A stretch of DNA of 40,005 nucleotides from a virus, in the IMG/VR virus record IMGVR_UViG_3300031539_000118; one strand, given 5' to 3'. Below the pieces are notes generated by a model. The model saw only the letters and a program-made list of their open reading frames with translations, was not told the DNA's origin and made no database searches. Below are positions 6,757 to 9,139 of the stretch, piece after piece; position 1 is the first letter of the stretch, and each line of letters begins with the position of its first letter. A program made the position numbers and the translations under genes.

Positions 6757-7347
6757 TCATCCTTTTCGGTCTTGAGCTTTGATTTTGCCGATCAAGCTTG
6801 CGAGATCCACGGTGCCGAACTCCGGTATTTGGTAATTGGCAAACAATTGTAGATATTCTGTTGCCTTGGTACCGTTGCCATCTTGTACCGTTTTACCACT
6901 CACCCATTGTTGCCAACCTCCTCGACCAACCAAGTGCAAAACAGCTAAGGCACCGCTCAACGTGACCCGTGTGCCGTGTAGTTCTTTATCCAATAGCCAC
7001 TTATATTTCTTAAGCAACCATTTTTTGTGATCGTTAAGATGGCGATTGAATATCTCTTCTTGTAAGGCTTGGCTGGTTAGAAAAAGTTCTTTGCTAAAAG
7101 GTTCGCGCCACTCAAAAGCAGCGTTGTGCCAACCCTTGGTACCTACCCGCCTGGCGCAAAGACCAAAGTCGGTGAGACGGGCTAAGCCGAATTGGTACTT
7201 CCCCAAATAACCAAACTGATTTACCACACCGTAGTCACAAGAACTTTCCCGTTTGGCCAGGGTCTCTGCAAATTGTGGCCAAGGTATCGCACCACTATTT
7301 GGGCCGGTCGGTTTGAAAAATGCTTCTATCCGTTTAACGATTTCCAT
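6757..7347 (-). CDS. putative lysozyme-like peptidoglycan hydrolase (lytic transglycosylase-like)
   Basis: Motifs E-S-x-C-D-x-G-V-x-N-x-x-GYLGKYQFG and ALAVLHLVGRGG resemble the catalytic Glu-Ser and G-L-M-Q region of SLT/lysozyme-like folds. Overlaps the upstream gene by 14 nt (operon). Assignment by eye only. Confidence 0.35.
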   Translation of the reverse strand: MEIVKRIEAFFKPTGPNSGAIPWPQFAETLAKRESSCDYGVVNQFGYLGKYQFGLARLTDFGLCARRVGTKGWHNAAFEWREPFSKELFLTSQALQEEIFNRHLNDHKKWLLKKYKWLLDKELHGTRVTLSGALAVLHLVGRGGWQQWVSGKTVQDGNGTKATEYLQLFANYQIPEFGTVDLASLIGKIKAQDRKG

Positions 7348-9139
7348 GTCCGTTACCCCAGCTATCTAACAAATGGTTCCAGCTTTGATTATACACCTTA
7401 GCTTTGTAGGCCTGGGCTACCTGCTTCCCTTGCCAAATTACTTCTTTACCTTCTTTGGCTTCCACCACTAAGATGCTAGTACCTTCGTGGATAAAGATCT
7501 CGTCTTCGCTACCCCCCGGTTCCAAGTTCACGATCAAAGTTCTTTTTACGTCTATCTGGGTCGGTTTGACCAAAGCTGTGACTACTACATTGTGATCTTG
7601 GTTGCCCCAATAGCACCCCGCACCTTTTAAAGTAAAAGCCCAATAAGACCCTAGGGAGTTCCCACCTTCGATCTGGTCTAAGATTTCGTGGGGGTGGGCG
7701 ACCGAGATACACCGGTAGATTTCCAAGTAGCCTTTTGTAACCTTGGCTTTAGCGAATTTCTTTTCGAATTCTCCGTACCGCTTTTTGAGATACTTTTTGG
7801 CGGTCGCTTCCCAGTCTTCGTGGTCGGTGTCTATTTCCCCTTCGTACTTGACATAGTCAGCTATCTCTTGGGGGGCTAAGCCTTCGTCCCATTCCCCTTC
7901 TTGGGGGTTGAGAACGTATTCTTCCCAATCGTAACGGAAAGAATTTTCTTCGAAGGTCTTTTTGAAAGTGGTGTTGAACGAATTAGCTACTACGATCGAA
8001 GACCCGATCCTGGCTTTACGCCTTTTGGTCTTTTCGTCTTCAGCGGCTTGCCATTCTTCATGGGATTTTTCGACATAAGGAACTTTGGTAACTTTATCCA
8101 CTTTGACCTTATTGGGATTGGTGACTATAACCCACCCGGCTACGGGATCGTGGATAGCATCCCAACCAAGATCTTCGATAGTTTTGTTGATCAAACCCTT
8201 TGCTTTATACCATTCAGTACCTTCGGACTTAAGTTTGTCGCCTAGCACCGATGCCAGCTTGTGGTAGAAATTCCCCTTGTCTTCTGCGGACAACCCGGAG
8301 CTAGTGTCTTTCCATAATTCATCAGCTTCAACTTCGGCCCAGATCAAATCTAATTCGTCACTGACCTTCTTAGCGTCTTTGGCGCTGGAAGTGTCGAACT
8401 GTTTGTTGCTGCTGATCCTCGCCTCGTAAAGATACCCTGGCTCATCGTGGTTCGTAGCATACTCTATAGCTTCTTCACGGTCTTCGGTGAAGTAAATCCC
8501 AGGGCCGTAATTCACACCCTTATTATCCAGCTTAAACTTTTTGAATTTATAAGGGCTGCCGTGGTAAAACTTATTGGCCAAAGCAGAATCCAATCGGTTG
8601 GTGTTGGTGCCGTGGTAAAGAGTGACCTTACCGGCGGTGACCTTAAGCGAAGCTTCGGCTTCATAAGGCTTCGAAGACCGGATCGCTGATTTTGTAAACA
8701 CCACTACTTGGTCTATGGGCGAAAGGACGCCACCGTCTTTTTCTTGGAAAACCAAAACATCCGCCCCTAGGTGGTCCTGGGCGAACTCCGAAAAGAAGGG
8801 GGTAGCTTTTAAGGGGTCGCCCCAGTCTCTAAAAACTTCTTCGGCTTCTTCGTTGTAAGAGATCACTTCTTGGGCGAATTCGTATTCGTCGTAAACATAC
8901 AACGCATTGTTAGTGTTGATTTCGAATTCGTAAAGATGGCCGGGGATATCTTTTAACTTTTGACCTGCTTGGCCTTGGCGACCCCCTTTGGCATAGAATT
9001 CAGCCCATTCCTTTCCCGCTAAGTAAAGCCCCGGCCCGAAGCGACCACCACCCTTGGTGGGATCGAAAGATTTGATTGGTTTGGGGGAACCGTGATAAAG
9101 GGTTCCTTTGTAGGGCTTGATCTCAAATTCTTCACTCAT
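7334..9139 (-). CDS. PARP/diphtheria-toxin-like (H-Y-E class) ADP-ribosyltransferase, two tandem modules, plus about 350-aa C-terminal region of unknown function
   Basis: Two copies of the NAD-binding signature. Copy 1 is LYHGS-(20 aa)-GPGLYLAG-...-HLYEFEI. Copy 2 is FYHGS-(19 aa)-GPGIYFTE-...-YLYEA. An extra LYHGT precedes copy 2. Compare PARP1 LLWHGS...GKGIYFAD...YNEY. Strong GGAGG RBS. Confidence 0.5.
   Translation of the reverse strand: MSEEFEIKPYKGTLYHGSPKPIKSFDPTKGGGRFGPGLYLAGKEWAEFYAKGGRQGQAGQKLKDIPGHLYEFEINTNNALYVYDEYEFAQEVISYNEEAEEVFRDWGDPLKATPFFSEFAQDHLGADVLVFQEKDGGVLSPIDQVVVFTKSAIRSSKPYEAEASLKVTAGKVTLYHGTNTNRLDSALANKFYHGSPYKFKKFKLDNKGVNYGPGIYFTEDREEAIEYATNHDEPGYLYEARISSNKQFDTSSAKDAKKVSDELDLIWAEVEADELWKDTSSGLSAEDKGNFYHKLASVLGDKLKSEGTEWYKAKGLINKTIEDLGWDAIHDPVAGWVIVTNPNKVKVDKVTKVPYVEKSHEEWQAAEDEKTKRRKARIGSSIVVANSFNTTFKKTFEENSFRYDWEEYVLNPQEGEWDEGLAPQEIADYVKYEGEIDTDHEDWEATAKKYLKKRYGEFEKKFAKAKVTKGYLEIYRCISVAHPHEILDQIEGGNSLGSYWAFTLKGAGCYWGNQDHNVVVTALVKPTQIDVKRTLIVNLEPGGSEDEIFIHEGTSILVVEAKEGKEVIWQGKQVAQAYKAKVYNQSWNHLLDSWGNGHGNR

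Follow-up and report, generated by a model that had tools for sequence, protein, structure and literature searches.

Three ADP-ribosyltransferase-fold modules in one 601-residue protein of a phage-like contig

A protein of three ADP-ribosyltransferase-fold modules

The IMG/VR virus record IMGVR_UViG_3300031539_000118, a stretch of 40,005 nucleotides referred to here as the window, encodes on its minus strand a 601-aa protein designated P0001. An original prediction, made from the DNA letters, read this protein as a tandem pair of PARP-like ADP-ribosyltransferase (ART) modules of the H-Y-E class. Translation of the open reading frame (ORF) at 7334-9139 confirmed all of the motifs on which that prediction drew, namely LYHGS (aa 14-18), GPGLYL (aa 35-40) and LYEF (aa 69-72) in the first copy, FYHGS (aa 191-195), GPGIYF (aa 212-217) and LYEA (aa 237-240) in the second, and an additional LYHGT between them. 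The identical 601-aa protein was called on six contigs, and the five places displayed come from five different samples. The recovery of the same protein on contigs from different samples indicated that the fusion is real and is not an assembly chimera.

The protein consists of three modules, designated A, B and C (Table 1). An exhaustive HMMER search of 1.84 billion representative sequences (E<=1e-3) returned 166 hits, which formed three sets independent of one another, one each for aa 1-160, aa 185-355 and aa 380-580, and none of the 166 was a full-length homologue of P0001. A word-indexed protein search with the full protein returned the self match only.

Modules A and B are related to one another. 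BLASTP aligned aa 1-167 with aa 168-379 at 31% identity (E=4e-8), and each copy has its own homologue family (E=1e-29 to 1e-40), with the stand-alone module B relatives P0004 and P0005 at E=1e-40 and 2e-36. When the whole protein was compared with Pfam, ART-PolyVal (PF18760) matched over two stretches with E=6.6e-13 and 50.1 bits, against a cut-off of 31.2. Module B scanned alone exceeded this cut-off (38.6 bits); module A alone, which spans profile positions 9-132 of 140, scored 22.2 bits and remained under it, and the module A relative P0012 scored 34.2 bits. In the same whole-protein scan DUF3990 was sub-threshold and PARP (PF00644) reached 22.7 bits, under its cut-off of 26.7.

AlphaFold2 (AF2) models were generated for modules A and C. 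A joint MAFFT alignment of all three families, with either the full protein or aa 1-375, placed module A relatives onto module B, and modelling was therefore confined to these two modules. The models had pLDDT values of 89.5 (A) and 87.6 (C), and structure comparison recognised the split beta-sheet ART fold in both; for module A this is the outcome that the original prediction had anticipated from structure prediction. The listed values for the structural matches of module A were 9.1 for MbcT, 8.8 for cyanophage A4 gp27, 8.5 for the SAIP toxin and 8.0-8.3 for RES toxins, followed by diphtheria toxin (7.7), PARP15 (7.5), PARP4 (7.1) and AcrF11 (7.1). At the sequence level, phmmer found no match to the protein among PDB sequences, and the module A profile reached tankyrases marginally (E=0.017). 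Alignment of the family profiles by hhalign with sequences of PARP1 and diphtheria toxin did not reach significance (probability <6%), and the lining up of the HGS and GIYF motifs in those runs serves as illustration only. Both N-terminal modules thus have an ART fold of the H-Y-[EDQ] clade, which includes PARP and diphtheria toxin, and their family is ART-PolyVal rather than PARP proper. The proposal of a PARP-like enzyme thus held for fold and clade, and failed for membership of the PARP family itself.

To identify catalytic residues, conservation was counted in an alignment of each module's own relatives (n=24 for module A, n=19 for module B). The His of the first motif is conserved in both families (H16, 22/24; H193, 18/19), as is the Tyr of the second (Y39, 23/24; Y216, 19/19). 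The Tyr of LYE is likewise retained (Y70 in 24/24, Y238 in 15/19), and the Glu that follows it, previously taken as the catalytic Glu, is found at E71 in 12 of the 24 and at E239 in 9 of the 19. In the model of module A, strand 2 leads into a helix and the next strand holds E71, outside the C-terminal catalytic strand; the position of E239, in module B, was taken from its homology with E71. In the C-terminal half, the acid that is conserved is the Asp of a G-x-D motif directly before a strand (D127, 12/24; D327, 15 of 17 non-gap positions), and the canonical members P0261 and P0018 carry the same motif as GHDG or GYDG. The G-x-D strand was taken as strand 5 from strand order. ART-PolyVal is described as having H in strand 1, Y in strand 2 and D in strand 5, within the Tox-ART-HYD2 clade (PMC5512222). 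D127 and D327 are probably the third catalytic residues, and for module A an alternative is Q144, which is invariant in the family of that module and lies at the head of the strand after the G-x-D strand. A catalytic role for the Glu of LYE is improbable. An assignment of Q144 (A) and W336 (B) to the position of PARP E988 was also considered; it is retained as an alternative, and was dropped as the preferred interpretation after G-x-D was seen in the canonical members and in view of the published H-Y-D arrangement (PMC5512222).

Duplication of the module, which had been regarded as atypical, is not unusual in this family: one to twelve copies of ART-PolyVal occur per protein (PMC5512222), and the relative P0018 has four. 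The columns of the extra LYHGT (aa 174-178) are gaps in 15-16 of the 19 module B homologues, and the junction 'EASLKVTAGKVTLYHGT' resembles the N-terminus 'HLIKALKSVIAKIYHGS' of the stand-alone relative P0005. From these observations, the extra LYHGT is probably the decayed leader and strand 1 of a once separate gene, not a functional additional site.

The remainder of the protein had been described as an uncharacterised tail of 350 aa. Module B, however, reaches to about aa 355, and aa 380-585 form a third folded domain, module C. The set of module C homologues is the largest of the three, and 86 of its members were aligned. R476 is conserved in 85/86, G497 in 86/86, W500 in 83/86, and E545 and E547 each in 86/86, within a family pattern of 'YRCI ... 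GIYW[STA]W ... ExEI'. Position 501 is S in 53, T in 18 and A in 15 members, and is Ala in P0001. In the model, R476 lies in strand 471-480, position 501 ends strand 499-501 and strand 547-550 starts with E547, a placement that corresponds to canonical R-S-E geometry. Module C thereby shows the pattern of the R-S-E clade, with Arg in strand 1, a Ser/Thr position in strand 2 and (Q/E)xE leading into strand 5. Its structural matches were pertussis toxin S1 (7.1), ArtA (6.8 oxidised, 6.4 reduced), TreX (6.3), IcmQ (6.3), CARDS (5.9), PARP15 (5.8), LT-A (5.7 and 5.2, two entries) and Tpt1 (5.4).

Module C was not recognised by Pfam, PHROGs or NCBIfam. A profile search retrieved at least 174 clusters, and members of the family occur on contigs of up to 336 kb; among the 120 clusters listed none had an informative name or a Pfam match covering module C. 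The best matches in BFVD were uncharacterised phage proteins such as Phi92_gp246. We consider it likely that module C represents an undescribed family of R-S-E-type ARTs. The statement that the protein is not of the R-S-E class accordingly stands for the two N-terminal modules and not for the C-terminal one. Cholera, iota and ART2-type enzymes carry ExE and are directed to arginine; by analogy, the ExE of module C suggests arginine-directed mono-ADP-ribosylation.

Table 1 Features of the P0001 gene and of the gene downstream of it, with positions in the window
Feature	Position	Strand	Remarks
Whole gene, 601-aa three-module ART protein P0001	7334..9139	(-)	ORF list, ATG start
Shine-Dalgarno sequence GGAGGTGA	9141..9148	(-)	One base upstream of the ATG at 9139, read from the sequence
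Module A, aa 1-160, ART-PolyVal-like ART domain	8660..9139	(-)	
Module A site H16, in LYHGS	9086-9100	(-)	
Module A site Y39, in GPGLYL	9020-9037	(-)	
Module A site D127, in G-A-D	8759-8767	(-)	
Module A site Q144	8708-8710	(-)	
Orphan LYHGT, aa 174-178, A-B junction	8606..8620	(-)	
Module B, aa 185-355, canonical ART-PolyVal domain	8075..8587	(-)	
Module B site H193, in FYHGS	8555-8569	(-)	
Module B site Y216, in GPGIYF	8489-8506	(-)	
Module B site D327, in G-W-D	8159-8167	(-)	
Charged linker VEKSHEEWQAAEDEKTKRRKARIG, aa 356-379	8003..8074	(-)	Translation checked; covered by no homologue
Module C, aa 380-585, helical subdomain and R-S-E-type ART core (~aa 471-577)	7385..8002	(-)	
Module C site R476	7712-7714	(-)	
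Module C site Y-W-A501	7637-7645	(-)	
Module C site E545-D-E547	7499-7507	(-)	
196-aa tail-lysozyme-like gene, downstream	6757..7347	(-)	14-nt overlap with the ART stop

Modular origin and relation to known systems

The relatives of the three modules occur in other arrangements. Module A is found inside proteins of 1500-2400 aa, among them P0018, in which its four ART-PolyVal copies are joined to DarA_C, P0019 (NUDIX, GNAT and RNase_T) and P0020 (SprT, GNAT and NUDIX). The fusion partners of module C include GNAT, NUDIX, a protein named 2'-5' RNA ligase by one source, and ART-PolyVal, the last in P0261, with a full-length PF18760 match of 79.4 bits, and in P0045. A search with hidden Markov models found no A, B or C genes beside the stand-alone relatives, which occupy different loci. 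Among GenBank phages, no relative was found by tblastn of the protein or by megablast of 25 kb, the sole DNA match being a tRNA. The separate homologue sets, together with stand-alone relatives at different loci, indicated that P0001 is a fusion of three mobile effector modules. Polyvalent proteins are recognised by at least two distinct effector domains in one polypeptide of a phage or conjugative element (Iyer et al. 2017), and P0001 has three, drawn from two ART clades. On the evidence of these sequence comparisons, P0001 can be described as a small polyvalent protein in which three once-independent ART genes are fused.

P0001 resembles the N4-like/Tox-ART-HYD2 group of ART-PolyVal proteins (Iyer et al. 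2017, PMC5512222) in its profile match, strand-1 H, strand-2 Y and G-x-D Asp, in the presence of several copies per polypeptide, in its phage origin, and in having relatives within giant GNAT/NUDIX/SprT/DarA_C proteins. It differs from those polyvalent proteins in its length of only 601 aa, in the lack of a zincin metallopeptidase, ArdC-N, MuF or other hub domain, in the extra GGRQG loop and invariant Gln144 of the module A sub-family, and in its fusion to an R-S-E-type ART. We found no description in the literature of a mixed H-Y-D and R-S-E fusion. Phage polyvalent ART effectors and the duplication of ART-PolyVal are already known, and of the new elements the unannotated module C is the most useful.

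The second-best structural match of module A, cyanophage A4 gp27 (PDB 9k3a chain B), is a 1717-aa ejection protein of the capsid-internal pre-ejectosome (PMC12002296); the paper that describes it does not mention an ART domain, with 0 occurrences of 'ADP-ribosyl'. A4 gp27 is a structural protein, and the sequence relation is not significant (E=0.46). The PARP catalytic domain (PF00644, including PARP4) and the C domain of diphtheria toxin differ from P0001, which has no conserved Glu at the catalytic strand and lacks the PARP accessory domains, the helical regulatory domain and the vault-interaction region. P0001 is nearer to minimal ARTs of RES/MbcT size. Module C differs from the CT-PT group (pertussis toxin S1, ArtA and heat-labile enterotoxin A), with 4-14% identity and no profile-level match, in the spacing of only 25 aa from the Arg to the Ser position, in its N-terminal four-helix subdomain, in the lack of a secretion signal, disulfide and B subunit, and in its phage-internal context.

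Phages and bacteria both use ADP-ribosylation as a principal weapon in their conflicts, and to our knowledge few phage ARTs have known targets. T4 Alt, of the R-S-E Alt/VIP2 clade, is a mono-ART that is packaged in the head and injected, and whose targets include RNA polymerase alpha among other host proteins. P0001 is comparable as a phage ART predicted to act on host proteins, and its module C shares the R/S-position/ExE logic. It differs from Alt, with no detectable sequence similarity and three ART domains where Alt has one. No sequence or closest-fold relationship was found between the ART protein and Alt, ModA/B, VIP2 or C3.

In P0001, two mechanistic classes of ART are represented by three domains that can be separated, within a compact, expressible chain. 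The module C family is unseen by current domain libraries and would be missed in automated surveys of phage NAD+/ADP-ribose systems. If active, the protein would extend the concept of the polyvalent effector to mixed-clade ART fusions in huge phages, and its modules would be probes for the host functions that such phages must switch off.

Proposed function, delivery and alternatives

Taken as a whole, we regard it as somewhat likely that P0001 serves a huge phage as an effector that modifies the host through three mono-ART domains and is possibly delivered with the virion. The probable active sites are H16/Y39/D127 in module A and H193/Y216/D327 in module B; module C would use R476, E545-x-E547 and, where a Ser is expected, A501. 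Each domain is predicted to bind NAD+ and to move a single ADP-ribose, rather than a polymer, onto a different host macromolecule, at or soon after infection on the model of T4 Alt. The outcome would be host machinery that is reprogrammed, or defences that are disarmed, as by Alt.

Delivery of P0001 in the virion is plausible. ARTs of the polyvalent type are predicted to be packaged in the head and injected (PMC5512222; PMC9503650), and three observations bear on this, namely the relative that contains DarA_C, the overlap of the ART gene with a tail-lysozyme-like gene, and the rank of A4 gp27 among the structural matches of module A. The overlapping gene encodes 196 aa and matches phrog_27932, 'baseplate hub subunit and tail lysozyme', over profile positions 342-485 of 855, the lysozyme part (E=6.6e-18). 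The two genes are probably co-translated.

Several points weigh against this proposal. No block of structural genes is evident around the gene, which has a hybrid histidine kinase, tRNA-like genes and a ParB-like gene as neighbours. Pfam detected no hub domains in the ART protein, and no fusion to MuF, a portal or a zincin peptidase is present. P0001 also lacks an N-terminal 'LIAALKxVV' leader that is found, for each of the three modules, in its nearest stand-alone relatives, and if this leader is a packaging signal, P0001 may not be packaged. Concerning catalysis, D127 is retained in only half of the module A relatives and Q144 is invariant instead, and the exact third residue of this module may be either of the two. 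For module C, the sequence profile reached no solved R-S-E ART, and hhalign with cholera toxin A1 and pertussis S1 sequences gave no significant result (probability <6%), the alignment of the S and ExE motifs in those runs being illustrative only. Finally, the Ser position of module C is occupied by Ala, as in 15 of its 86 relatives.

The leader, found on small phage proteins that are unrelated to one another, has the form 'M-x(1-3)-L[VIL][AS]AL[HRNKQ]x[IV][VI]'. It is carried by the module A relatives P0006, P0011 and P0049, the module B relative P0005, and the module C relatives P0002, P0003, P0040, P0050 and P0058. It is also present on five different ORFs of one 7.2-kb contig, L006 (starts at 4005, 4769, 6320 and 6888 on the plus strand and at 6146 on the minus strand), and in the window on the ORF at 39100-39669 (+), which begins 'MNHKLIAALHRVV'. 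Within residues 1-35 the leader was present in 9 of 266 proteins; over the rest of these proteins it occurs 0.003 times per 35 aa. At the DNA level nearly every occurrence is 2-5 residues after Met; one ORF, on contig L010, begins at a non-ATG codon. The leader may be a lineage-specific targeting or packaging signal, which the fused ART protein has lost. On L006 the ORF at 4005-4769 (+), of 254 aa, combines the leader with YHGT...(39 aa)...RGIYVT and abuts the gene of the module C family member P0002. No Pfam ART match was obtained for this ORF, which, judged by its motifs, may encode a divergent H-Y ART. We put forward only tentatively the combined proposal that module C is a large unannotated R-S-E-type family specific to large and huge phages, that P0001 is the first H-Y-D and R-S-E polyvalent effector to be noted, and that a whole set of injected effectors, from otherwise unrelated genes of these phages, is defined by the 'M-x-LIAALKxVV' leader as its shared packaging or targeting signal.

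The absence of the leader, and a neighbourhood of regulatory and replication genes rather than head genes, would also fit an intracellular enzyme that is not packaged and is made after infection in the manner of ModA/ModB or AcrF11, where it would ADP-ribosylate host or defence proteins or consume NAD+ as a RES/MbcT-like NADase or phosphorylase. This explanation differs from virion delivery in timing and route only, and possibly in chemistry. We judge it the main alternative, but less likely: modules A and B carry the H-Y motif and not RES-type residues, giant polyvalent proteins with DarA_C contain ART-PolyVal relatives, a tail-lysozyme-like gene is coupled to the ART gene, and the fold also matches a capsid-internal ejection protein. 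That one or more of the modules are catalytically dead pseudo-ARTs kept for binding or as a scaffold appears improbable. Such a reading could draw on the unconserved Glu of LYE, on a G-x-D Asp conserved in 50% of the module A family and on the Ala that replaces the motif Ser in module C. Each candidate site nevertheless has a consensus catalytic-type residue (H16, Y39, D127 and Q144; H193, Y216 and D327; R476, E545 and E547), and across the families conservation of the R, ExE, H and Y is 92-100%, a level that speaks for selection on an active site. A further alternative would make module C a secreted toxin of the pertussis or cholera kind, carried by the phage for its host's benefit against eukaryotes. 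This is very unlikely, since module C sits behind two other ARTs in one chain, the N-terminus MSEEFEIKPYKG is no signal peptide, no B-subunit gene is present, and identity to the toxins is 4-14%. The family also lies on huge-phage-like contigs, with GNAT, NUDIX, 2'-5' RNA ligase-like and ART-PolyVal partners that are typical of conflict between phage and bacterium.

The original prediction had further linked the gene to an MVP homologue in the window, vPARP (PARP4) being a vault component in eukaryotes. The MVP homologue, at 15283-17937 (+), is 884 aa long and matches MVP_shoulder (95 bits) and Vault_3 (37 bits). Its relatives among GenBank phages are confined to three records, LR756500, LR756501 and LR756503, from uncultured phages of 462 kb and 735 kb, with ~37% MVP identity over 97-99% of the length. 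We consider a phage MVP-like shell with the ART as a vPARP-like passenger or partner highly improbable. The genes are on opposite strands and 6.1 kb apart, with the unrelated kinase, tRNA-like and ParB-like genes between them. Pfam detected no BRCT, VIT or vWA domain in the ART protein and scored PARP under its cut-off, the LYE Glu is not conserved, and PARP4 ranks in the middle of the module A structural matches, below MbcT, RES toxins, diphtheria toxin and PARP15. In the two GenBank MVP-phage loci examined, no A, B or C module lies within 20 kb on either side of MVP, and tblastn of the ART protein against whole genomes of the MVP-bearing GenBank phages gave no match. Relatives of the modules are also found on many contigs where no MVP was seen. 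Co-occurrence with MVP is thus not conserved, the suggested link between the ART and the vault is not borne out, and the ART finding has no bearing on vault biology. The preferred reading of P0001 remains that of a host-modifying triple ART effector.

Genes surrounding the ART gene

The window is phage-like in its gene content, with tRNA genes, DnaB, DnaJ, a ParB-like gene and many ORFs without a family. Directly upstream of the ART gene and on the same strand lies the hybrid histidine kinase gene (9193-10653, -). Its product has N-terminal hydrophobic segments followed by HisKA, HATPase_c and a receiver domain, a composition unusual for a phage. The order kinase, ART and lysozyme is maintained on the other contigs that are long enough to show it. 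A scan for promoter and terminator consensus sequences around the ART gene gave results at chance level.

Further away, two adjacent tRNA-like genes with irregular anticodon loops were reported by ARAGORN as 'tRNA-???' (10928-11080, -), and the first of these is 88% identical to the tRNA-Asn of Agrobacterium/Rhizobium phages. Ordinary genes for tRNA-Glu, tRNA-Asn and tRNA-Phe are located at 3887-4116 and 39868-39941. The window also encodes a protein with collagen triple helix repeats (356-1102, +), a ParB-like protein (13248-14129, -), a DnaJ-like chaperone (28749-29540, -) and a DnaB-like helicase (33648-34976, -). A protein of 712 aa (35647-37785, -) matches phrog_2426 (E=4.5e-128) and is kept at 27-28% identity in PBS1/AR9, in ViI-like phages of Serratia, Klebsiella and Salmonella, and in large Rhizobium phages; in some of these records it is annotated with a von Willebrand factor A domain.

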